DNA from: Ruminococcus sp. | GTDB lineage: Bacteria; Bacillota; Clostridia; Oscillospirales; Ruminococcaceae | NCBI GenBank assembly: GCA_017437285.1 | Contig: JAFSBM010000037.1 | Location: 21,320 to 85,319, forward strand | Length of the DNA: 64,000 bases | Reading direction: 5' to 3' | Shown: positions 3,160-16,569 of the stretch, piece by piece | Layout: the number at the start of each line of letters is the position of its first letter | Position numbering within the stretch: the stretch's first letter is position 1 | The notes under the pieces: generated by a model | Told to the model about the DNA's origin: nothing | What the model saw: only the letters and a program-made list of their open reading frames with translations | Database searches by the model: none | Translations under genes and position numbers: made by a program

Positions 3160-4194
3160 ATGAAGTATACAAAAATTATATCGCTTTTAGCTGCTGCATC
3201 AATGGCAGTTTCACCTGCATCTATGACTGTTTACGCTGAGGGCGATAATACAAATGATAAACCTGCACAGACAGAGCAGACACCGTCAGAGGAAGTTGCA
3301 ACGACTACTACAACCACAGCAGCTGCTACAACTGAAATCACGACAACAGCTGCTACTACAACAGCTGAAGTGACCACAACTACAGCAGATACCGCTACAT
3401 CTACCACAAAACCAACTACAACTGCAACAAAAAAGGTTACAACGACAACAAAACCCAAAACTACCACAACTACTACAGCTACAACAACAGAGCCTGTTAC
3501 TACAACTGTAACTACAACATCGCCTGCTGATAATGCAGTAGTTGTAAAGCCTGTTTGCGAGCATTTTATCAAGAACGATGTCAATGGCGAACTTCGCATT
3601 TCTGTACCGGAGGATGCTACAGCAAAGGTTGATGTAGTTTACGAATCTCCCGAATATGACAAACACGAGTACTACAACTGCACTCTTGAGGGTGGAGAAG
3701 TGTATTCCTTAGCAATCGAGGGCAGAGATACAACTGAGGACGACTACCGCAATTATACCGTCAGTATTTCACTTACAGGCGGAATTTACGGAATCACCTC
3801 CGATAGTTATACAGAGAAATTCAATGTTGCTGATAAAAACGACAATCCTGATTCATTCAAATCTGTAAGCTATATTTTAGCAATTGACAATGTACAGTCC
3901 ACAGAATCATTTGATATTACAACTGATAGAGAAAACCTTAAAAGAGTAGCTTTTCATCTTAACTATGTAATGCTTGGAGATGTAAACGATGACTCAGTTG
4001 TCAATTCTTCTGACGCTTCGATTGTCCTTGCAGAGTATGCAAAAATTTCCACAGGTGCAGCAAGCACTTTAACACAAAAGCAGTCCATAGCAGCTGATGT
4101 AAACAAGGATACTTTAGTTGATTCATCCGATGCTTCAAAAATACTTACATATTACAGTGAAATTTCAACAGGCGGTAAACCTACATGGGATTAA
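3160..4194 (+). CDS. Secreted dockerin protein with a Thr-rich linker and an unknown central domain
   Basis: Signal peptide, ~75-aa Thr-rich linker, and a C-terminal duplicated dockerin segment (GDVNDDSVVNSSDASIVL ... ADVNKDTLVDSSDASKIL). Confidence 0.75.
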   Translation: MKYTKIISLLAAASMAVSPASMTVYAEGDNTNDKPAQTEQTPSEEVATTTTTTAAATTEITTTAATTTAEVTTTTADTATSTTKPTTTATKKVTTTTKPKTTTTTTATTTEPVTTTVTTTSPADNAVVVKPVCEHFIKNDVNGELRISVPEDATAKVDVVYESPEYDKHEYYNCTLEGGEVYSLAIEGRDTTEDDYRNYTVSISLTGGIYGITSDSYTEKFNVADKNDNPDSFKSVSYILAIDNVQSTESFDITTDRENLKRVAFHLNYVMLGDVNDDSVVNSSDASIVLAEYAKISTGAASTLTQKQSIAADVNKDTLVDSSDASKILTYYSEISTGGKPTWD

Positions 4195-7079
4195 TTCAAT
4201 ATAAAATTAACGATAAGCTTTACGGATTTACAATAAATAATATACGAAAAACAAAATTCGGCGATTTTATTGAAATGCGTCACGATAAGACATCTGCACC
4301 ACTTGTATGGCTGAAAAACGACAATGACAACAAGCTTTTCAGCATTTCATTCAAGACAGTTCCCGAAGATGATACGGGCGTATTTCACATACTGGAACAT
4401 TCCGTACTGGGCGGTTCTGAAAACTATCCTGTAAAAGAACCGTTCCTGTATCTGCTGAAAGGCTCAATGAACACATTTCTCAATGCAATGACCTTTCCCG
4501 ATAAGACAATGTATCCTGTTTCAAGCCGAAATAACAGGGATTTTCTCAATCTCACAAAAGTATATCTTGACGCTGTTTTCAAGCCGTTAATTTATACCGT
4601 TCCAAACATTTTCTATCAGGAGGGACATCACATTGAATACAACGGCTGTGACGAGGAAGCGTCATATAAGGGCGTTGTTTTCAATGAAATGAAAGGCTAT
4701 ATCTCATCAGTTCACGAGCGAATTGAAAGTGAAATGAACAGCCTGCTTTATCCCGATACTTCATACAGATTTGAATTCGGAGGACTTCCCTCGGCAATTC
4801 CTGACCTTACCTATGAGCAGTTTACAGATGTTCACAGAAGATATTATAACCCTGCCAATTCATATATATACCTTGACGGTGACATAAATCCCGATGAAGT
4901 TCTGCCCCTTATTGACAGCTATATTTCACAATTTGAGGGAACTGTGGAAATTCCACAGATTAAGTATCAGGAGTCTACAGAAAGCAAGGTATGCGAGCTT
5001 TACTATGATTCTTCCGCTGAATGTGACGAATCCCAGACATATATTGCTGTGGGAAAAATTCTCGGCAGCTGGCAGAATATTGAAGATATAACAGCATACA
5101 GCGTTATCTCAAGAGCAATTGCAGGCAGCAATGATTCTCCCTTGAAAAAAGCAATTGTGGATTCAGGCTTATGCCTTGATGCGGAACTGATAGTTTCTGA
5201 CGGCAATTTACAGCCTAACGGTGTGCTTAAATTTTACAATACCGATAAGGAAAATGGCGAAAAACTGCTTGCTATTACAGCTGATACAGTAAGGCGGCTT
5301 GTAGAAAAAGGCATTGACAGAGATTTGCTTGAAGCCGCAATAAATCGCTGTGAATTCATTTACAGAGAATCGGAAGAACCAAAGGGACTTACCCGCTGTG
5401 TTGATGCAATGTCGTCATGGCTTTATGGCGGTGACCCTCTTATGTATATCGACAAGGATGATGTTTTCAAGAGCCTCAGAGAAAAGCTTGACAGCGATTA
5501 TTTTGAAAAGCTGCTGGAAAAATGGCTTCTTGATGAAAATGGCAGAGCTGTTCTTTATATGCTGCCCTCCGATACATATGGAGAGGAACAGGCACAGGCT
5601 GAAAAAAGCCGTGTACAAAGCGAAGTTACGGCAATGTCAGATGATGAAAAGTCACAGCTTATCAAGCTTAATGAAAATCTTGCTGAATGGCAGAATATCC
5701 CCGACAGCGAGGAGAATACAGCGAAACTTCCTAAACTTCCGCTTACGGAAATTTCAACTGAGCCAATACGATATATAACTGAGGAAAAGAGTGAAAATGG
5801 AATAAAAATCCTCACTCACCCTGTAAGTGAAAGCGAAATTACTGTAATGACGCTGTATTTTGATGCAGATGATTTATCTGCGGAGGAATTGCGTAAATTG
5901 TCGGTTATAGACCGTCTTATTGCGGAATTACCCACTAAGAAATCGGACGGAGTTGAGTTGCAGAAGCGAATTGAGGGAACTTTAGGCAGCCTTACAACAG
6001 ATATTTTACCTGTAGGAAAGGAAAATTCCCCTGAAAGCTGCCGTGTATTCTTTGAATTGAAAACACGCTTTTTATCGAGAAATTTTGATAAGGCGACGGC
6101 TCTTATTTCAGAAATCCTTACAGAAACAGATTTTGTTCAGCCTGAATTTGCATTGAGAGAAATGCGGCAGGATGAGGAAAATATGAAGCAGGATATTATA
6201 TCTGAGGGACACAGGTTTTCCGTCCGCAGAGCAACTGCAAATGCTTCTGCCGAATCTGCGGTTATTGAATTTATGCGTGGATTTGAGGGATATAAGGCAC
6301 TTTGCGAAATCAACCGCCTTTCATCTGATGATTTCTCAGTATATCTTGAAAGTCTGAATGAACTTGCAAAGCGTATTTTCTGCAAGTCAAGGCTTACAGT
6401 TAGCATTGCAGCTGAGGGTGATTACGATTTGTCACAGCTGTTTGATAAACTTCCACAGGGCGAGGCTTGCGAGAAAAACTCAATGGAATTCAAGCTTGAT
6501 ATTTCTGAGAATAACTGCATTGAAATTCCCTCTGCAACAGCATATTCGGGAGCAGTTTTAGGCGGACAGATTGCGGATAAAGCCGCTTGGTCCGTGCTTT
6601 CATCTATGATTACCTATGAGTATCTCTGGAATGAAGTCCGTGTAAAGGGCGGAGCATACGGCTGCGGCTGTAATGTGAACAATATGAAAGAGGCTTGTTT
6701 CCACTCATATTGCGACCCTTCACCTGAAAAAAGCTTCGGTACATTTAAAAATACCGCAGATTTCATAAGGGAATATTGCATGGAAAATACCGATATTTCG
6801 CAGTATATCATAAGCAGTATTGCATCGGGTGAGCCTATTGTAAGCGACGGTGAGTATGTTGCAGCAGCTGACGGAATGTGTTTCAGAGGAATTACACAGG
6901 ATACAAGGCGAAAGCTTCGTGGCGAAGTTCTTGAAATGACCTCTGAAAGGCTATGTGCCGCCGCTGAGGAGTTTGACAAGAAGATGTATTTCTGTGTTGT
7001 AAGCTCTAAAGATACAATTGATGAAGTTATAAAAACTCACCCCGACAGAAAATTCAATTGCGAAAGCATTAACCGGTAA
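4185..7079 (+). CDS. M16C (PreP/insulinase-like) zinc metallopeptidase
   Basis: 964 aa with the HxxEH zinc motif HILEHSVLGGS near the N-terminus. The start overlaps the upstream stop by 10 nt. Confidence 0.85.
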   Translation: MGLIQYKINDKLYGFTINNIRKTKFGDFIEMRHDKTSAPLVWLKNDNDNKLFSISFKTVPEDDTGVFHILEHSVLGGSENYPVKEPFLYLLKGSMNTFLNAMTFPDKTMYPVSSRNNRDFLNLTKVYLDAVFKPLIYTVPNIFYQEGHHIEYNGCDEEASYKGVVFNEMKGYISSVHERIESEMNSLLYPDTSYRFEFGGLPSAIPDLTYEQFTDVHRRYYNPANSYIYLDGDINPDEVLPLIDSYISQFEGTVEIPQIKYQESTESKVCELYYDSSAECDESQTYIAVGKILGSWQNIEDITAYSVISRAIAGSNDSPLKKAIVDSGLCLDAELIVSDGNLQPNGVLKFYNTDKENGEKLLAITADTVRRLVEKGIDRDLLEAAINRCEFIYRESEEPKGLTRCVDAMSSWLYGGDPLMYIDKDDVFKSLREKLDSDYFEKLLEKWLLDENGRAVLYMLPSDTYGEEQAQAEKSRVQSEVTAMSDDEKSQLIKLNENLAEWQNIPDSEENTAKLPKLPLTEISTEPIRYITEEKSENGIKILTHPVSESEITVMTLYFDADDLSAEELRKLSVIDRLIAELPTKKSDGVELQKRIEGTLGSLTTDILPVGKENSPESCRVFFELKTRFLSRNFDKATALISEILTETDFVQPEFALREMRQDEENMKQDIISEGHRFSVRRATANASAESAVIEFMRGFEGYKALCEINRLSSDDFSVYLESLNELAKRIFCKSRLTVSIAAEGDYDLSQLFDKLPQGEACEKNSMEFKLDISENNCIEIPSATAYSGAVLGGQIADKAAWSVLSSMITYEYLWNEVRVKGGAYGCGCNVNNMKEACFHSYCDPSPEKSFGTFKNTADFIREYCMENTDISQYIISSIASGEPIVSDGEYVAAADGMCFRGITQDTRRKLRGEVLEMTSERLCAAAEEFDKKMYFCVVSSKDTIDEVIKTHPDRKFNCESINR

Positions 7080-9587: not shown

Positions 9588-10142
9588 TCAGATATTTTGC
9601 GAAATATCCGACAAATATGAACTTTGAACTTCCTGCTTTACCTTGTTTTTAATTGACGGGTGGAGGAATTTTACTATATTTGAAACCATTTTTTCATTCG
9701 GAACAAATACAAGTCGTGTATTTCCATATGTTTCGTGCTGAAAATCAGCATAATATTCATTTTCAACTATGTTATCAGTAGCAAATACCGTTGTCATATC
9801 CTCAGTTTCATCGGGTACATTATCGGTATATTTTCCGAATGCTGTGAATTTACTTACAGAAATTGTGAGCATTTCTTTTCTTTTAGTCTGATTGATAATT
9901 TTATCTATATCAAGCTCACCGTTTGTAAATGTATACTCATATTCCACCTTAGAATTTCTGTAAAGGAAAAACGTACCCACACCAAGTGCAACAGCCACAA
10001 AAAGCAGCAGAAATGAGAAAACAAAACCTGCGATTAATGCTAAAAATGTAAGCAGCATTCCGAGAATTAAAATAATACAGGTTTTCATTCTGTCCGCACC
10101 TGTAGGCTGACGTTTAACAAGCTGTTCTGCAAAATTATCCAT
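9588..10142 (-). CDS. Membrane protein with two N-terminal TM helices, function unknown
   Basis: 184 aa with a hydrophobic stretch at aa 20-60 and RBS AAGGAG. No motif recognised. Confidence 0.55.
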   Translation of the reverse strand: MDNFAEQLVKRQPTGADRMKTCIILILGMLLTFLALIAGFVFSFLLLFVAVALGVGTFFLYRNSKVEYEYTFTNGELDIDKIINQTKRKEMLTISVSKFTAFGKYTDNVPDETEDMTTVFATDNIVENEYYADFQHETYGNTRLVFVPNEKMVSNIVKFLHPSIKNKVKQEVQSSYLSDISQNI

Positions 10143-10243: not shown

Positions 10244-10272
10244 TTGATTTTTTTTAAATAAGCTGTTATAAT
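10244..10272 (+). promoter_or_regulatory. Sigma-A type promoter of the pheS leader
   Basis: TTGATT, 17 nt, TATAAT. Confidence 0.5.
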
Positions 10273-10279
10273 ATATATG

Positions 10280-10520
10280 ATATGAAACTCAATGACTGAG
10301 AGAGTAGGCTGAAAATGAAGTCCACAGAGAGGAACACATTGGTGCGAGTGTTCTGACGGAGTATTGGCTGAAGTTCACTCACGAGAGGCAGAGTTGAATG
10401 CATATGCTGTGTAGGCTCTGACGTAAGTCTGCGTTATAGACAAGAGAGTGTCGGCTCTCCCGAAAATGGGTGGTATAGCAAGTTAGTCTTGTCCTGTTTG
10501 GGATGGGACTCTTTTTATTT
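10280..10520 (+). promoter_or_regulatory. T-box riboswitch leader with a Phe specifier
   Basis: AGAGA-type stem I elements. Specifier-loop GAAG-UUC-A has UUC at 10374-10376. T-box sequence AAAUGGGUGGUAUAGCA at 10464-10480. Terminator stem 10485-10494/10501-10510 is followed by CUUUUU. Confidence 0.8.
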
Positions 10521-10552
10521 ACGGCACAAATAAATATACAGGAGTGATTTTT

Positions 10553-11581
10553 TTGAAAGAACAGCTTGAAAGAATTGAAACGCTGGCGAAGCAGGAAATG
10601 GAGTCCTGCACAGACATTAAGGCACTTGACGATTTAAGAGTCAAGTATCTGGGAAAAAAAGGTGAGCTTACTGCTATTTTAAAGCAAATGGGTAAGCTTT
10701 CCGCTGAGGAAAGACCTGTTATCGGTCAGCTTGCAAATCAGGTTAGAGCTGATATTGAAGAAGCTCTCAGCACAAAGCTTGTTGCATTAAAGGCAAACGC
10801 ACAGGCTGAACAGCTTAAATCCGAAACAATTGATATTACTCTCCCCGGAAAGACAGCTCCAATGGGTAAGCTTCACCCTCTTACAAAGGTTGAGAACGAA
10901 ATCCGTGAAATATTCATGGGTATGGGCTTTGATATTGCCGACGGTCCTGAGGTTGACGACGATTATCACGTATTCGAGGCGTTGAACCTTCCTCCCGACC
11001 ACCCTGCAAGAGATACACAGGATACATTCTACATCGAGGGAACAGATGAAACAGTTCTCCTCCGTACACAGACTTCATCTGTACAGGTTCACGTAATGGA
11101 AACTCAGAAACCGCCAATCAGAATTATTTCACCTGGCAGAGTTTTCCGTTCTGACGCTGTAGACGCCACACATTCACCTCTTTTCCACCAGATTGAGGGA
11201 CTTGTAATTGATAAGGGAATCAAGATGAGCGACCTCAAGGGTACACTTGAAATGCTTATGAAGAAGCTTTACGGAAATGACTGCAAGCTTCGTTTCCGTC
11301 CTCACCACTTCCCATTCACAGAACCTTCATGTGAAGTTGATATAAGCTGCTTCAACTGCGGCGGATGCGGATGCTCCATGTGTAAGGACGAGGGATATAT
11401 CGAGCTTCTCGGTGCAGGTATGGTTCATCCTAAGGTGCTTGAAAACTGCGGTATTGACAGTACTGAATATTCAGGCTTTGCATTCGGACTTGGTCTGGAG
11501 CGTATGGTTATGGGACGTTACGACATTAACGACCTCCGTCTGCTTTATGAGAATGATGTAAGATTCTTAGAGCAGTTCTGA
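10553..11581 (+). CDS. pheS: Phenylalanine--tRNA ligase alpha subunit
   Basis: Class II aaRS motifs (HPARDTQDTFY, FRPHHFPFTEPS, GAGMVHP). The TTG at 10553 is preferred because AGGAG lies 8 nt upstream. The track GTG at 10544 overlaps the RBS. Confidence 0.93.
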   Translation: MKEQLERIETLAKQEMESCTDIKALDDLRVKYLGKKGELTAILKQMGKLSAEERPVIGQLANQVRADIEEALSTKLVALKANAQAEQLKSETIDITLPGKTAPMGKLHPLTKVENEIREIFMGMGFDIADGPEVDDDYHVFEALNLPPDHPARDTQDTFYIEGTDETVLLRTQTSSVQVHVMETQKPPIRIISPGRVFRSDAVDATHSPLFHQIEGLVIDKGIKMSDLKGTLEMLMKKLYGNDCKLRFRPHHFPFTEPSCEVDISCFNCGGCGCSMCKDEGYIELLGAGMVHPKVLENCGIDSTEYSGFAFGLGLERMVMGRYDINDLRLLYENDVRFLEQF

Positions 11582-11604
11582 TTATAGAAGGTATAGGGAT
11601 TTTT

Positions 11605-12237
11605 ATGAAAAGGGCAAATAAAACAGTTATTATTTCAATAATACTTATAATAGTTACGATTATTCTAACCGTTCTTTTTCCTGACAGCGGAACTCCTGTC
11701 TTTATATTACTTTTAGTTTTTTTGATATTTCCATTTGTTACGAGAATAGTTAACGGAAATAAGAATCAAAAACTGGTTTATGAGCGTCTTGGAGTGTCAA
11801 CTAAGGAAGAATATTATCGGGCATTATCGGAATTTAATGAACTTATAGCAAACAGATTGTACATTAAGGACGATTTGATAATTAATATTAATTCTTACGA
11901 TATGTATTACATTAATGAAATTGTAAGTATTGAAAAAGTTAATCGTCGTCATTATTCCCGCTATGGTCATACGTATCGTAATATTTCATATGAACTTAAA
12001 ATTATAACAGATTCAATTATTGATACACTCAAATACGATACAAACGTATCAGGCCGTGACTGTGCATATCTGCTTTTGTCGAGAAAGCTGACAGAATTCA
12101 GACAAGATACAGCCGGTGATGTCTATGACGGCTTTGTAAGCAATGAAAAGGCTTATTCTATGGATGAATATGATGATATGATTATGGACGAAGAAGATAT
12201 AAAGGACAGAGAAAACAGAAGTGACTGGCTTGGTTAA
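11605..12237 (+). CDS. Cassette ORF A: 2-TM protein with a soluble C-terminal domain and acidic tail, function unknown
   Basis: 210 aa. Two hydrophobic helices (aa 7-26 and 31-49), then a ~120-aa domain and a DE-rich tail (MDEYDDMIMDEEDIKD). AT-rich codon usage unlike pheS. Confidence 0.6.
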   Translation: MKRANKTVIISIILIIVTIILTVLFPDSGTPVFILLLVFLIFPFVTRIVNGNKNQKLVYERLGVSTKEEYYRALSEFNELIANRLYIKDDLIININSYDMYYINEIVSIEKVNRRHYSRYGHTYRNISYELKIITDSIIDTLKYDTNVSGRDCAYLLLSRKLTEFRQDTAGDVYDGFVSNEKAYSMDEYDDMIMDEEDIKDRENRSDWLG

Positions 12238-12282
12238 AAGAGTAGCATATGACAATTTTAAATTATAAAAGAGGTGAAAATT

Positions 12283-13074
12283 ATGGATGATAAAAAGAAA
12301 AAAGCCATAGAGTTGCTTGTTGATTCCAGTATAGAAAATTTTGTAACTGGTTTAACATCACGTTATGAAAAAGAAGTTGATAGTGATTTTGGTGTTGTTA
12401 ATATGAAAAAGAATAACTGTTTTATTGCTGAACTGGGAGAAGAATTTATGTTCTATTCTGCCTTTGTTCGCAGTTTTGACAGTAGTTTCGGAAATGTTTT
12501 GGAAACATTGGGAAATAATATTGCAAAATTATCTTATGATGTAAGAGGAAATATTAATTCTTTTATGTTGCCGGACCAGACTCAAAGAATAGCTTCTATT
12601 CTTGATAGTTATGGTAAGCATACATCAACACCTGCAATTAGTCATTATGAAAATTTTGATGTAATTTACCCTAAAAATACTGTAAGTTTTCAAACAACTC
12701 ATGTAACTGATAATTATTTTTATAATCCTGATACAAATGAGCATTATCTCATTATGTTAAAATCTCTTGATAATTGTAATACACAACAAGTTTATCATGA
12801 TAAAGAAGAATTGCTTACTCAATTTTTTCTCTTGAAAAATTCACTAAGTAATGAGAATGAAATAAAAATATTATTGTTTTATTGTCTGCCTTTTGAAACC
12901 GAACTGAATAATAGCAACAATTTTATTCTTAATATATTTGAGCCTAATGAATTCTTATTAGGAAAACAATACTGGAATTTTGTTTGCGATGATAATAATG
13001 GTTATTCAATTGTATCTAATCAGGTGAAAAAATCAATAGAAAAGCACATTCTGAAAGTAGGTTTATATGACTAA
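12283..13074 (+). CDS. Cassette ORF B: restriction-endonuclease-like protein, possibly TdeIII-like (unverified)
   Basis: 263 aa from the ATG at 12283 (AAGAGG 8 nt upstream). The SFDSSFGNVLE, TD...YLIMLKS and LLGKQYWNFV segments resemble my recollection of the TdeIII type II REase family. No search was run. Confidence 0.5.
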   Translation: MDDKKKKAIELLVDSSIENFVTGLTSRYEKEVDSDFGVVNMKKNNCFIAELGEEFMFYSAFVRSFDSSFGNVLETLGNNIAKLSYDVRGNINSFMLPDQTQRIASILDSYGKHTSTPAISHYENFDVIYPKNTVSFQTTHVTDNYFYNPDTNEHYLIMLKSLDNCNTQQVYHDKEELLTQFFLLKNSLSNENEIKILLFYCLPFETELNNSNNFILNIFEPNEFLLGKQYWNFVCDDNNGYSIVSNQVKKSIEKHILKVGLYD

Positions 13075-13699
13075 AGTAGAAGCGATAGAAGCCTTAATGC
13101 ATGAATACAATGGGATAATAACTTTAGAAATAATATATAATGAAATAGAAAAGTATTATCCAAACGCTAAATCATCAAACGAGTGGAAATCAGGGCTTAG
13201 AGGTGTCTTATATAGGGAGTTAGGAAAGAAATTTAAACGAATTGATAAATCAATATATTCCCTTATAGATTATGATGAGCGTAATCTAATAGTTCCACAA
13301 AAAGACCTGTTGATTACAGAGCAAGAGGTATTATCCATTGTCAGAACACAACAGCAGAATTTTAGAAAAAAGCTTTTAAATCATCTGAATTTATGCCCTA
13401 TCACATTGATTAATGATAAAAGACTTTTAGTAGCGAGTCATATTAAGCCTTGGTGTTTATCAAATAATGATGAAAGAGTAGACATATATAATGGTTTTAT
13501 GTTGTCGCCACTTTATGATAAATTGTTTGATAGTGGCTTGATAACATTTACAGACCATAAAGAATTATTAGTATCTTCTTCTTTATCTGAAGATACAATA
13601 AAAAAGCTAAATATAAACACAGGTATTTATGATAAACTTCCAGTTAAAGGAAGAGAAAAATATCTGGAATTTCATAATGAAAAAATTTTTATAAAATAA
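13067..13699 (+). CDS. Cassette ORF C: HNH nuclease (HNH_2-type) with an N-terminal wHTH-like domain
   Basis: The motif ASHIKPW...NGFMLSPLYDKLFDSGLITF matches the HNH_2 pattern (H-I-x-P ... N-G ... H/Y-x-x-F-D). The ATG overlaps the ORF B stop by 8 nt (ATGACTAA). Confidence 0.7.
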   Translation: MTKVEAIEALMHEYNGIITLEIIYNEIEKYYPNAKSSNEWKSGLRGVLYRELGKKFKRIDKSIYSLIDYDERNLIVPQKDLLITEQEVLSIVRTQQQNFRKKLLNHLNLCPITLINDKRLLVASHIKPWCLSNNDERVDIYNGFMLSPLYDKLFDSGLITFTDHKELLVSSSLSEDTIKKLNINTGIYDKLPVKGREKYLEFHNEKIFIK

Positions 13700-13726
13700 A
13701 AATTTTATTTAGAAAGGAAAAATTAT

Positions 13727-16183
13727 ATGAATTTATCAATGAAATGGCTCGCTGATTATGTTGATGTCAACGTGCCTATAAAAGATTATTGTCACGCTCT
13801 TACAATGAGCGGTTCAAAGGTAGAGGGCTATGAAATTGAGGGAGAGAAGATTTCCAAGGTTGTAGTAGGAAAAATTCTCTCAAAAGGACCTCACGAAAAC
13901 GCTGATGCTCTCTTTGTATGTCAGGTTGAAGTAGGAGCAGATGCTCCCATTCAGATTGTAACTAATGCAAAAAACGTCAAGGAGGGTGATATTGTTCCTG
14001 TTGCTCTTGACGGTGCTGTACTTCCTGAGGGAAAAATCAAGAAAGGCAAACTCCGTGGCGTTGAAAGCTTTGGTATGTTCTGCGGTCTTGATACTCTCGG
14101 ACTTACAATTAACGATTTCCCTTACGCTGACCCTGAGGGAGTTCTTGTAATTGAAGAAGAATGTGAAATAGGACAGGATATTCATGAGGCTCTAGGTCTT
14201 AATGACACATCAGTTGAGTTTGAAATCACATCAAACCGTCCTGACTGTCTTAGCGTTATTGGTCTTGCAAGAGAAACTGCTGCAACATATAATCTCCCCC
14301 TCACAGTAAAAGAACCTGAATTCAAAGGCGTTGAGGGCGATATCAACGAGATGCTCAAAGTTGATATTCACAACACAGAGAAGTGCCAGAGATATTGTGC
14401 AGGTATCGTTAAGAACGTAAAAATCGGTTCTTCACCTCGCTGGATGAGAGAAAGACTCCGTGCAAGCGGTGTTCGTCCTATCAACAATTTCGTTGATATT
14501 ACAAACTATGTAATGCTCGAATATGGTCAGCCTATGCACGCATTTGACCTCCGCTATGTTGAGGGCGGTCACATCAATGTAAGAAATGCTGTAAATGGCG
14601 AAAAGATTATGACTCTTGACGGTGTTGAGCGTGAACTTACAGAAGATATGCTCGTTATTGCTGACGAGAAAAAGCCTGTTGCAGTTGCAGGTGTTATGGG
14701 CGGTGAGTACAGCGGAATTATGGATGACACAACAACAGTTGTATTCGAGTCCGCATACTTTGAGCCGTCACAGGTTCGCCGTACTTCAAAGAACCTCAAA
14801 TTAAAGTCTGACGCTTCATCACGTTATGAAAAGGGCGTTGACCGTCTTATTTCAATGACTTGCCTTAAACGTGCATTTGAGCTTGTTGAGGAGCTTGGAG
14901 CAGGTGAGGTTGTAAAAACTGTAATTGACTGCGATTACACAGATAAGACTCCTGCATGCGTTGATTTCGATTCTGCTTGGATTAACGAATTCCTCGGAAC
15001 TGAAATTCCCGAAGCTGATATGATTGATTATCTCAATCGCCTTGGCTTTGAGGTTAAGGACGGTAAGGTTTATGCACCTTCATTCCGTATTGACATTGAG
15101 TGCCGTGCTGATATTGCAGAAGAAGTTGCAAGAATTTACGGCTACAATAACATTCCCTCAACTGATTTCAGAGGTGTTGCAAAGGCTGAATTCACAGAGG
15201 AACAGAAATTTGTACGTACATTAAGAAACACATCTGCATCACTTGGCGGATATGAAATTGCTACATATTCATTCGTTTCACCTAAGTATTTCGACAAAAT
15301 CAGACTTTCTGAGGACAGCAAGCTCCGCAAGGTTGTAAGAATTGTAAATCCTCTCGGTGAGGATACAAGCGTTATGAGAACAACTACTATACCCTCAATG
15401 CTTGATGTACTTTCATTCAACTACAATAACCGTAACGAAAAGGCTTGCCTTTTTGAGATTTCCAAGGAATATATTCCTGTTGCTGAAAAGCGTAATTATG
15501 AGGGAGATGAGGCTATTCTCGTAAATAGCGGAAAGCTCCGTCACGAGTACAAGTATCAGCTTCCCGATGAGCCACAGCGTCTTACAATCGGTATGTACGG
15601 CGGTGACGCTGATTTCTACACATTAAAGGGTATGGTTGAGCAGATTTTTGCTGAAATCAATATTGATGATGTAGAGTACATCCGTGCAAATGACTGCGAT
15701 GTATTTGATGAAAAGTCAGCATTCCACCCAGGCAGAAGTGCTGTTATTGTCAAGGACGGTAAATATCTCGGAATTATGGGCGAAATTCACCCCGAAGTAC
15801 AGGAGAATTACAAGCTTGGTGTCAAGACATATGCTGCAAAGCTTAATATTCCTGAAATGCTTGAACTTTCCTGCGATGAAATTTCCTATAAGCCCCTTCC
15901 TAAGTTCCCTGCATCAACTCGTGACCTCAGCGTTATTGTTGACGATGAAGTTCCGGTTGCAGCAATTGAAAAGGCTATCCGTGGAGCAGTAGGCAAGATT
16001 CTTGAAAAGGTTACACTTTTCGACGTATACAAGGGCAAGCAGATTGAGGAGGGCAAAAAGTCCGTTTCATACTCAATTTCAATGCGTTCACACGAGGGTA
16101 CACTCACAGATGAGCAGGCTGACGGTGCAATGAAAAAGGTACTTAAAGCACTTGCTGAAATTGGTGCAGAACTCAGAATGTAA
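13727..16183 (+). CDS. pheT: Phenylalanine--tRNA ligase beta subunit
   Basis: 818 aa. The N-terminus MNLSMKWLADYV, an EMAP/tRNA-binding domain, the B3/4 and B5 regions and a C-terminal FDX-ACB region are all recognisable. Confidence 0.93.
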   Translation: MNLSMKWLADYVDVNVPIKDYCHALTMSGSKVEGYEIEGEKISKVVVGKILSKGPHENADALFVCQVEVGADAPIQIVTNAKNVKEGDIVPVALDGAVLPEGKIKKGKLRGVESFGMFCGLDTLGLTINDFPYADPEGVLVIEEECEIGQDIHEALGLNDTSVEFEITSNRPDCLSVIGLARETAATYNLPLTVKEPEFKGVEGDINEMLKVDIHNTEKCQRYCAGIVKNVKIGSSPRWMRERLRASGVRPINNFVDITNYVMLEYGQPMHAFDLRYVEGGHINVRNAVNGEKIMTLDGVERELTEDMLVIADEKKPVAVAGVMGGEYSGIMDDTTTVVFESAYFEPSQVRRTSKNLKLKSDASSRYEKGVDRLISMTCLKRAFELVEELGAGEVVKTVIDCDYTDKTPACVDFDSAWINEFLGTEIPEADMIDYLNRLGFEVKDGKVYAPSFRIDIECRADIAEEVARIYGYNNIPSTDFRGVAKAEFTEEQKFVRTLRNTSASLGGYEIATYSFVSPKYFDKIRLSEDSKLRKVVRIVNPLGEDTSVMRTTTIPSMLDVLSFNYNNRNEKACLFEISKEYIPVAEKRNYEGDEAILVNSGKLRHEYKYQLPDEPQRLTIGMYGGDADFYTLKGMVEQIFAEINIDDVEYIRANDCDVFDEKSAFHPGRSAVIVKDGKYLGIMGEIHPEVQENYKLGVKTYAAKLNIPEMLELSCDEISYKPLPKFPASTRDLSVIVDDEVPVAAIEKAIRGAVGKILEKVTLFDVYKGKQIEEGKKSVSYSISMRSHEGTLTDEQADGAMKKVLKALAEIGAELRM

Positions 16184-16201
16184 TAAAATAGTATAAAGAT
16201 T

Positions 16202-16247
16202 AAACCGACAATTAGGGCATAAATGCTTTAATTGTCGGTTTTTCTTC
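16202..16247 (+). terminator. Rho-independent terminator of the pheST operon
   Basis: AAACCGACAATT ... AATTGTCGGTTT stem followed by TTTCTTC. Confidence 0.7.
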
Positions 16248-16277
16248 ATTTTGTCCACCTTTTATTCATTTTATCCG

Positions 16278-16306
16278 TTGACATATATTACAAATTGATT
16301 TAAAAT
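16278..16306 (+). promoter_or_regulatory. Sigma-A type promoter upstream of MITE copy 1 and the GH43 gene
   Basis: TTGACA, 17 nt, TAAAAT. Confidence 0.5.
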
Positions 16307-16361
16307 TAATATATAGGATTTAGTTTATTTTTAATTTTGGGTTTAAGGCAATATTGCTATA

Positions 16362-16520
16362 GGGCATCTCTAAAAACCCCTTTTGAGAAAAAAACAGCTA
16401 TGCACGACATCTGCTGCGTCAACCTCCCTTGGAGTGCGAAAGCACGCCTTCGGAAGCTTTCCTTGCAGCTGCCGCACCTATCTGTTTTTTCTTTAATCAA
16501 ACGAGTTTTTAGAGATGCCC
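16362..16520 (+). mobile_element. MITE-like element, copy 1 (159 bp)
   Basis: Perfect 16-bp TIR GGGCATCTCTAAAAAC / GTTTTTAGAGATGCCC. Flanked by direct TATA/TATA. Near-identical to copies at 25948, 28113 and 49106. Confidence 0.65.
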
Positions 16521-16569
16521 TATACAATGTGATATGCCTTTATTTTGGATAATTAATGAGGTGTTAAAA

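Follow-up and report, generated by a model that had tools for sequence, protein, structure and literature searches.

A probable two-layer insert between pheS and pheT in Ruminococcus: a resident membrane-protein gene and a restriction-related nuclease pair

A 64,000-nucleotide (64-kb) stretch of Ruminococcus sp. DNA (assembly GCA_017437285.1, contig JAFSBM010000037.1, positions 21,320 to 85,319; hereafter the window, to which all coordinates without a locus handle refer) carries pheS and pheT, which encode the two subunits of Phe-tRNA synthetase, separated by a 2,145-bp gap with three co-oriented open reading frames (ORFs), here termed A, B and C. The initial annotation had located these exactly, between the pheS stop (11581) and the pheT start (13727), and had taken them for one acquired defense or addiction module. 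Our analysis points to an insert that is probably composed of two layers of different origin, namely the resident ORF A and a strain-specific pair of restriction-related genes, B-C; the two parts jointly make up the explanation that we favor. The genes concerned are as follows:

10544-11581, plus strand: pheS, Phe-tRNA synthetase alpha subunit (Pfam, E about 1e-103)
11605-12237, plus strand: ORF A, 210 aa, with two N-terminal transmembrane (TM) helices
12283-13074, plus strand: ORF B, 263 aa counted from its ATG, RE_TdeIII family (PF09520)
13067-13699, plus strand: ORF C, 210 aa, HNH_2 family (PF13391), overlapping ORF B by 8 bp
13727-16183, plus strand: pheT, beta subunit (Pfam, E 1e-70)

The pheS-pheT gap and its resident gene family

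The AT-richness ascribed to the gap was borne out by measurement: its guanine-plus-cytosine (GC) content is 28.7%, against 44.8% in pheS and a window mean of 39%, and the individual values are 31.8% for ORF A, 27.5% for ORF B, 28.3% for ORF C and 42.4% for pheT. GC at third codon positions (GC3) is 19-26% in the gap genes versus 42% in pheS. The ATG of ORF B is preceded by a good ribosome-binding site (RBS), with an alternative GTG upstream at 12274. As the A-B-C haplotype is found at 100% identity in at least eight independent metagenome samples, the insert is not an assembly artifact. Terminal repeats and target-site duplications were looked for at the insert and none was found; it consists of ORFs and their RBSs only.

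A pheS query served to collect 80 related loci in Ruminococcus, each from a different species; 79 of them hold both pheS and pheT and provide the gap statistics. The assumption that the two genes normally adjoin each other fails in this clade: the gap measures anywhere between 20 and 2,590 bp, being near-empty (at most 220 bp) in 16 of the 79 loci, and in the other 63 it holds between one and four ORFs, all co-oriented and about 130-320 aa long. Gap DNA consistently lies about 8-17 GC points below pheS across the related species, and low GC is therefore a trait of the locus rather than the mark of a recent import. By BLAST, ORF A clusters with 62 other gap ORFs (63 in total, in one cluster), and this family is present in 50 of the 79 loci, in nine of which it occurs as two to four tandem copies. 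The family has a mean column identity of 21%, and searches with ORF A returned 14 matches among 5.8e9 proteins and, in a second set of 1.84e9, 26 representatives. ORF A has no match in Pfam, PADLOC, NCBIfam or PHROG, and a Pfam scan of 43 family members gave nothing above noise. Its AlphaFold model comprises two TM helices, seven strands and a C-terminal helix (domain pLDDT, the model's confidence score, 85-90), and the modeled domain appears PH-like in topology. Foldseek found no significant fold match for this model, PH domains with an E value near 0.2 being all that it returned, and placement in a bacterial PH-domain family was rejected on that score; a relationship to DUF6106 was likewise discarded (BLASTP E 3.1, hhalign probability 2.7%). 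Judged by sequence, ORF A appears to be an allele of a resident, Ruminococcus-restricted, fast-evolving family of two-TM proteins that is native to the pheS/pheT gap in most species of the R. flavefaciens group. Gap occupants outside the A-family cluster include a 317-aa SH3_3-domain protein (L046:3014-3967) and two small groups, clusters 1 and 2, of ORFs of about 190-207 aa without a Pfam match (L011:7035-7619, L010:5083-5706); these may be divergent members of the A family or unrelated cargo.

Alignment of the pheS-pheT junctions among relatives, which the initial annotation had proposed, yielded the near-empty sites mentioned above and also defined the limits of the variable segment. In L001, a genome of the same species, the flanks are 96-98% identical to the window in DNA and the gap content is different, consisting of a 162-aa ORF and an A-type gene 44% identical to ORF A. 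Identity in pheS is 95.7% up to base 11582, where it ends, and it returns at 98% exactly at 13727, so that the boundaries coincide with the pheS stop and the pheT ATG. In L005-L007 and L081, a chimeric pheT5'::pheS3' scar is present between tandem gap genes. In each, a TAGAG microhomology marks the point where the first ~85-100 bp of pheT, RBS and ATG included, are fused to the final ~16-25 bp of pheS:

L005:7602-7730: chimeric scar
L006 and L007:7614-7735: chimeric scars
L081:4449-4559: chimeric scar

Such scars are the expected footprint of tandem duplication, or of single-crossover (Campbell-type) integration, of a pheS3'-gene-pheT5' unit, and they show pheS and pheT acting as homology arms. 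With these arms, alleles of ORF A would be swapped between strains and at times tandemly duplicated.

Acquisition and predicted expression of the B-C pair

Neither ORF B nor ORF C was found among the 80 species representatives, the same-species genome included. Comparison with L081, in which both genes have counterparts, reveals sharply differing levels of DNA identity along the locus: 92-100% in pheS, none between the A-type genes (34% identity at the protein level), 73-87% over the 5' half of ORF B, 90-95% over its 3' half, and 95-100% over bases 13118-13837, from ORF C to about 110 bp into pheT, followed by an abrupt drop to 57-75%. ORF C is 98% identical to its L081 counterpart, and its synonymous divergence (dS) is 0.075 as against 0.244 for pheS. 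Given this identity pattern and the low dS of ORF C, the locus is a mosaic of segments exchanged through homologous recombination. As the comparison with L081 shows, one crossover lies about 110 bp into pheT, and this initial part of the gene (13727-13837) travels with the cassette; the other would have fallen either in B or close to the A gene's conserved 3' tail. By this route B-C would have arrived and could also leave. The pair thus defined is strain-specific and horizontally acquired. The horizontal origin proposed in the initial annotation accordingly holds for B-C, which is absent from the 80 representatives, but not for ORF A, a member of the resident gap family. Contigs with an identical ORF A and no B-C were looked for and none was found, each of those recovered also carrying B-C. 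The rest of pheT is itself mosaic: window 13838-14194 (about residues 38-156, including the tRNA-binding domain) is the segment that is 57-75% identical to L081, and later parts are 80-95% identical, while pheS is at about 95%.

A regulatory element that had been missed earlier, a tRNA-Phe T-box leader, precedes pheS. The signals relevant to transcription and translation of the operon are:

10244-10272, plus strand: best promoter-like site 5' of the T-box leader (TTGATT-17-TATAAT, extended -10 TG)
10283-10510, plus strand: tRNA-Phe T-box leader including its intrinsic terminator (Rfam RF00230)
10485-10510, plus strand: T-box terminator (11-pair stem, then a T-run)
12238-12282, plus strand: A-to-B spacer with the ORF B RBS, homologous to the native pheT leader of A'-to-pheT type
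13700-13726, plus strand: C-to-pheT spacer with the pheT RBS, homologous to the native leader of X-to-pheT type
16202-16241, plus strand: strong intrinsic terminator ending the operon (18-pair stem, then a T-run; inverted repeat I7)

The leader matches RF00230 over 10283-10499 with 104.9 bits (gathering score 93), and its specifier, UUC (Phe) in the context GAAG-UUC-A, matches the synthetase that it regulates. The upstream site scores 10/12 in a consensus scan and is a putative promoter. The only strong terminators at the operon are that of the T-box and the one after pheT, and the insert contains a single weak 5-bp stem, in ORF A. Because it is AT-rich, co-oriented and terminator-free in this sense, it is almost certain that the insert shares a transcript with pheS and pheT. 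In agreement with the initial annotation, no strong terminator lies in the insert. As is expected of AT-rich DNA, hexamers resembling promoter elements are present in it, e.g. a 10/12 match at 11681-11708, and an internal promoter is therefore possible by sequence. Read-through, which that annotation took to be the only route to pheT expression, is likely.

The spacers on either side of B-C carry a further indication of how the pair is expressed. The A-to-B spacer of L081 aligns with the A'-to-pheT leader of the cassette-free loci L007 and L002 (GGGCAGT.TATAA...AAAT.TAAA.GGAGGT), and that of the window aligns with the L081 spacer; the C-to-pheT spacer can be aligned to the L008 leader of X-to-pheT type and to the copies present in the L006 and L007 scars (AAAATAATTTGAAAGGA...ATGAATTTATCA). 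These homologies suggest that translation of ORF B makes use of what was once a pheT leader and that pheT keeps a leader of its own. Since B-C has no terminator or evident promoter and is flanked by such leaders, its expression is expected to follow the Phe T-box. ORFs B and C would most likely be transcribed from the pheST promoter under control of the tRNA-Phe T-box riboswitch, with the T-box leader governing read-through into pheS-A-B-C-pheT.

Outside the insert, one neighboring gene belongs to the conserved synteny context of the operon, being present upstream of pheS in 68 of the 80 related loci:

9588-10142, minus strand: divergent gene for a DUF6106 two-TM protein, upstream of pheS (Pfam PF19601, 5e-9)

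On the other side, a variable stretch also occurs 3' of pheT (window 16184-16533, compared with L001-L004), in which 16362-16519 has no L001 counterpart and L002-L004 have about 200 bp additional between the pheT stop and the terminator.

The two nucleases and the system from which they derive

The description of B and C as restriction-type nucleases stood up to profile searches. ORF B matches PF09520 with 107.9 bits (cut-off 27.2; E 8e-31) over profile positions 2-234 of 242, and ORF C matches PF13391 with 38.9 bits (cut-off 21; E 8e-10). The AlphaFold model of ORF B (pLDDT 74) has as its top Foldseek match EcoO109I (E 5.5e-4, probability 1.0), an enzyme that cuts RG^GNCCY, followed by other PD-(D/E)XK nucleases; no solved structure matching ORF B by sequence was found, and a PADLOC search with it gave no match. 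In an alignment of 35 family members the core reads HVTD...EHYLIELKASGDLDNKK...FFGTAYNKFGEG..WKQERVRQFF, and the same region of the window protein reads ...EHYLIMLKSLDNCNTQ...LFYCLPFETELNN---SNNFILNIF. All 48 of 48 near-invariant positions are kept up to residue 157, versus 18 of 45 beyond it (27 of 45 lost), and the glutamate of the E-x-K motif is replaced by methionine (E158M), with D143 and K160 retained. In the model M158 and K160 lie on the third core strand (153-159), after D143, as in the canonical catalytic geometry. Against L081, the ratio of nonsynonymous to synonymous substitution rates (dN/dS) is 0.06 in the N-terminal part (dS 1.18) and 0.37 in the C-terminal part. Judging from its residues, ORF B has therefore very probably ceased to be a nuclease, and being degenerate it would leave the window strain with no need for a protective methyltransferase. 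Its N-terminal part, which is still under selection, may bind DNA or bind ORF C. TdeIII/EcoO109I-like type II enzymes share with ORF B the family profile, an EcoO109I-like fold and the N-terminal 157 residues; the window protein differs from them in the methionine and the C-terminal losses just described and in having, in place of a methyltransferase, an HNH nuclease as its partner.

ORF C presents the opposite picture. It has all 48 of the 48 invariant columns of a 36-member family alignment, including ASHIKPW...NGF...D..FD.G.ITF, and its dN/dS against homologs is 0.06-0.17 at dS above 1.5. Its HNH domain matches that of VcaM4I, an EVE-HNH enzyme (E 3.6e-30; PDB 6YEX, PMC7897488), and the protein also matches the PADLOC HNH model (1.6e-26). 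The N-terminus of the window protein has a sub-threshold match to Forkhead (E 0.0086), and among the 36 homologs this region matches HARE-HTH in nine (best 1.3e-5) and Forkhead in eight. By these signs ORF C appears intact, under purifying selection and the persistent core of the module. Fusions of a winged helix to HNH (wH-HNH) constitute an experimentally supported type IV class that cuts modified (methylated) foreign DNA and needs no methyltransferase (PMC11037411). With members of this class, such as SruGXI and the PUA-wH-HNH protein HhiV4I (PMC11037411), ORF C shares a putative N-terminal winged helix, a C-terminal HNH domain, a similar size and the lack of an accompanying methyltransferase. 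It differs in its sensor domain, which appears to be of HARE-HTH type as against the DpnI-like winged helix of these enzymes or the EVE domain of VcaM4I, in its length (210 aa versus 224-283 aa in the published set), and in having environmental relatives that sit in a restriction-modification (R-M) operon. By analogy, ORF C is most likely a methyltransferase-independent, type IV-like nuclease and the active component of B-C.

The search for a named defense system that the initial annotation had recommended came back without a defined one: in PADLOC-DB v2 ORF C matches generic HNH and type II restriction endonuclease models only, A and B match none, and the A-B-C gene set corresponds to none of the defined multi-gene systems. 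A PHROG search returned two weak matches of unknown function, for ORF C only. A phage carrier of B-C was sought, and viral contigs gave distant matches to the HNH domain only; in a search for a plasmid carrier the best plasmid matches were at most 34% identical. Two Ruminococcus phages (PV036441.1:16015-16410 and PV036433.1:26595-26990) encode a protein about 35% identical to the ORF C HNH domain (residues 80-208) and without the winged-helix part.

Gene neighborhoods of homologs point to the source of the pair. In distant environmental lineages B, C and an N4/N6 methyltransferase-related ORF follow one another in that order, with neighbors of defense-island type (serine recombinase, SMODS, Schlafen-AlbA_2, AAA_13 and KilA-N/Bro-N), and B with a methyltransferase alone, a classical R-M pair, occurs in L095 and on the Psychrobacter plasmid pA3H9. 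From this gene order and these pairs it follows that the ancestral unit was a restriction endonuclease-HNH-methyltransferase (R-HNH-M) system, and B-C appears to be the remnant of such a system, made up of a TdeIII/EcoO109I-like endonuclease, a winged-helix-HNH protein and an N4/N6 methyltransferase. In the environmental loci L103:5584-6486 and L104:5665-6492 a Bro-N or KilA-N protein stands between the HNH gene and the methyltransferase-related ORF, whose match is limited to the C-terminal part of the L095 methyltransferase (M.L095), and the methyltransferase may be split or fused there. The L095 pair (L095:7001-8550; a B homolog 60% identical, plus an N6_N4 methyltransferase) lies between parB and serS and is a further restriction module directly before an aminoacyl-tRNA synthetase gene. 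In gut Clostridia, the methyltransferase is absent beside B-C in every case examined, and the loci form a decay series: a truncated B, C and a methyltransferase remnant, in that order, in L267; a frameshifted methyltransferase remnant, then C, in L098; C alone in L263; and a degenerate B, then C, in the window and L081, with C always intact. The L267 remnant is a 62-aa piece (L267:6021-6206) 66% identical to the C-terminus of M.L095; in L098 (L098:6569-7000 and 4138-4980) the frameshifted fragment reads 'DGIDFLKQISDNSLKIVFL' / 'FFDPQYRG...LFLWVDKF', and pheS at that locus is preceded by a tyrosine recombinase gene.

In agreement with the initial annotation, the 64-kb window yielded no methyltransferase signature, either by tblastn with two cognate-type methyltransferases or by a motif screen of ORFs of at least 120 aa, whose two hits were identified as aspS and a GH16 hydrolase. 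The picture of a methyltransferase-free addiction module nevertheless gives way to that of an R-HNH-M remnant whose B lacks the catalytic glutamate. The window contains 126 GANTC sites (observed/expected, O/E, 0.59) and 20 GGNCC sites (O/E 0.54). Site avoidance was tried as a readout of ORF B specificity and was uninformative, these two motifs being mildly depleted and other palindromes far more so. Short palindromes are strongly avoided across the window (O/E 0.05 for GCGC, 0.15 for GGCC, 0.16 for GATC, 0.19 for CCGG, 0.31 for CCWGG and 0.34 for CATG), which suggests long exposure to many restriction systems.

Recurrence between core genes and competing explanations

A survey of Clostridia-type C genes at 60% identity or more yielded about ten distinct contexts, a recurrence that had also gone unnoticed earlier. 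Five of them are pheS/pheT gaps, namely those of the window, L081, L087, L090 and L098, with host pheS identities to the window of 98%, 70%, 69% and 47% for the last four; two are other co-oriented gene pairs (L092, L267). In a further three the module, or C alone, lies co-oriented between mutS and mutL, with no methyltransferase:

L261:4155-5633
L263:5001-5636
L265:4166-5633

In the phylogeny of C, the main pheS/pheT group forms a clade with 95% bootstrap, inside which L092 is nested, and the mutS/mutL trio is grouped weakly (51%). L098 branches off deeply and on its own, implying that pheS/pheT was reached independently at least twice. No description of a B-C placement inside housekeeping operons such as pheST or mutSL was found in the literature searched. 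What is new is a methyltransferase-less nuclease module, with no obvious promoter or any terminator, inside pheST and mutSL of several gut Clostridia lineages, the window copy under a T-box riboswitch, together with a hypervariable pheS/pheT locus bearing chimeric scars.

How the module comes to occupy such positions can be seen in two ways. As the gap is a hotspot even where B-C is absent, plain recombination between conserved flanks is favored. An unlikely alternative is a selfish element of homing type, in which C, alone or guided by B, cuts cassette-free alleles at the short spacer that separates two conserved co-transcribed genes (pheS/pheT or mutS/mutL); repair of the double-strand break would then copy it in, the conserved genes providing the homology arms. 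A precedent exists in T-even phages, whose free-standing homing endonucleases include the seg genes and mobE, the latter located between nrdA and nrdB (PMC2790892, PMC2988022): like them, the window has an HNH gene between the genes for two subunits of an essential enzyme, presence/absence polymorphism among relatives and co-conversion of a flank, here the initial ~110 bp of pheT. The repeated arrivals at pheS/pheT (L098 versus the main clade) and the three lineages at mutS/mutL, the survival of C where B and the methyltransferase decay, the minimal insertion of ORFs and RBSs lacking mobile-element ends, and the failure to find a plasmid or phage carrier would all fit this mechanism. The pattern of a polymorphic nuclease gene between conserved genes with flank co-conversion is indeed of homing type, but recombination at a hotspot would give the same. 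Moreover, the setting differs from that of the phage systems in being a bacterial chromosome, in the relationship of C to restriction enzymes, which are its nearest characterized relatives, and in that the gap is a hotspot for unrelated genes irrespective of C, so that no targeting nuclease is needed. Environmental C genes sit within R-HNH-M operons in defense islands, not between core genes; native pheT leaders persist on both sides of the insert, so that a putative target is not obviously destroyed; and about ten contexts only were sampled. In its broadest form, which we likewise consider doubtful, a wH-HNH gene with or without a TdeIII-like partner would be a chromosomal selfish element that specifically colonizes the spacer of a few bases before the second gene of ultra-conserved two-gene operons (pheS/pheT, mutS/mutL), takes over the downstream leader, supplies a new one and spreads among gut Clostridia by nuclease-stimulated gene conversion.

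Slightly less probable still is a split type II R-M system, with B, C or both active and sequence-specific and the cognate methyltransferase encoded outside the window. About 2% of the genome is visible, the B family is usually paired with an adenine or N4/N6 methyltransferase, the nearest PADLOC models for C are labeled type II restriction enzymes, and B homologs with intact motifs stand without an adjacent methyltransferase in five other lineages. However, the window B lacks the E-x-K glutamate and most of the conserved C-terminal positions, the window has numerous GANTC and GGNCC sites as counted above, and the methyltransferase remnants beside C in L098 and L267 show loss of the methyltransferase with retention of C. 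The cassette also moves as B-C alone, and an ordinary type II enzyme would kill a recipient lacking the methyltransferase. That B-C is functionless debris, carried passively at a recombination hotspot, is improbable: the loss of the methyltransferase, the catalytic degeneration and relaxed C-terminal half of B, and its truncation or absence in other lineages are what decay would produce, but both ORFs are intact, C retains every invariant residue at a low dN/dS over a dS above 1.5, and the N-terminal part of B is constrained. The least credible reading is the original one of a single three-gene defense or addiction module kept because its deletion from pheST would be lethal: the genes are co-oriented, compact, AT-rich and inside an essential operon, and their haplotype is stable across samples, but A occurs without B-C in 50 related species and B-C without A in L087 and L090, the A-type neighbor in L081 is 34% identical as against 98% for C, and the 16 near-empty gaps, the many allele swaps and the breakpoints at gene boundaries indicate that clean loss is tolerated, leaving the lethal-parking idea unsupported.

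Several observations also weigh against the two-layer explanation that we favor. In the B homologs of L087, L090, L092, L261 and L265 every catalytic motif is preserved (D...ELK, GTAYNKFGEG..WKQERV), and no methyltransferase was found on the fetched contigs of these five lineages; simple decay does not explain intact-motif B without an adjacent methyltransferase. Only 64 kb of the genome is visible, and a cognate methyltransferase may be present elsewhere. The intact ORF B, with an overall dN/dS of 0.11, argues that the protein keeps some function, which our model leaves unspecified. The winged-helix assignment is weak for the window ORF C itself and comes mainly from homologs, and its presumed dependence on modified DNA derives from domain architecture and the lack of a methyltransferase. 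Lastly, the promoter-like hexamers in the insert leave room for expression beyond pheST read-through.

Exchange of alternative cassettes at one locus has parallels elsewhere. The DpnI/DpnII cassettes of Streptococcus pneumoniae, which Lacks et al. are said to have described, are reportedly small alternatives swapped at one chromosomal locus with conserved flanks by homologous recombination, one of them reportedly lacking a methyltransferase and combining a methyl-dependent winged-helix nuclease with a second small gene. The pheS/pheT gap differs in locus and protein families, lying inside an essential riboswitch-controlled operon, and its alternatives are membrane-protein genes rather than a complementary R-M system. 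Kobayashi and colleagues (PMC2853133) described restriction genes as insertions or substitutions between conserved flanks with no transposase or integrase; as in the window, differing gene sets replace each other as alleles. Their survey concerns R-M pairs and long target duplications, and includes no methyltransferase-less nuclease pairs inside operons of the pheST or mutSL type.

For annotation, the locus illustrates how three AT-rich genes in an essential operon can represent two unrelated layers, and how a restriction-like nuclease can have lost its active site. In the R. flavefaciens group, the gap of the T-box-controlled pheST operon has been repeatedly swapped and duplicated, and scars record how this took place. 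The most interesting part of the finding is the placement of the module at pheS/pheT and mutS/mutL, where insertions polar on pheT or mutL could alter translation capacity or mutation rate. If only recombination between conserved flanks is at work, the locus would be a clean case from nature in which core genes provide the homology arms for defense-gene traffic. If the selfish-element reading were true, the module would be a restriction-derived equivalent, on the bacterial chromosome, of the phages' free-standing homing endonucleases, and nuclease-driven targeting would extend homing-type mobility to bacterial chromosomes.

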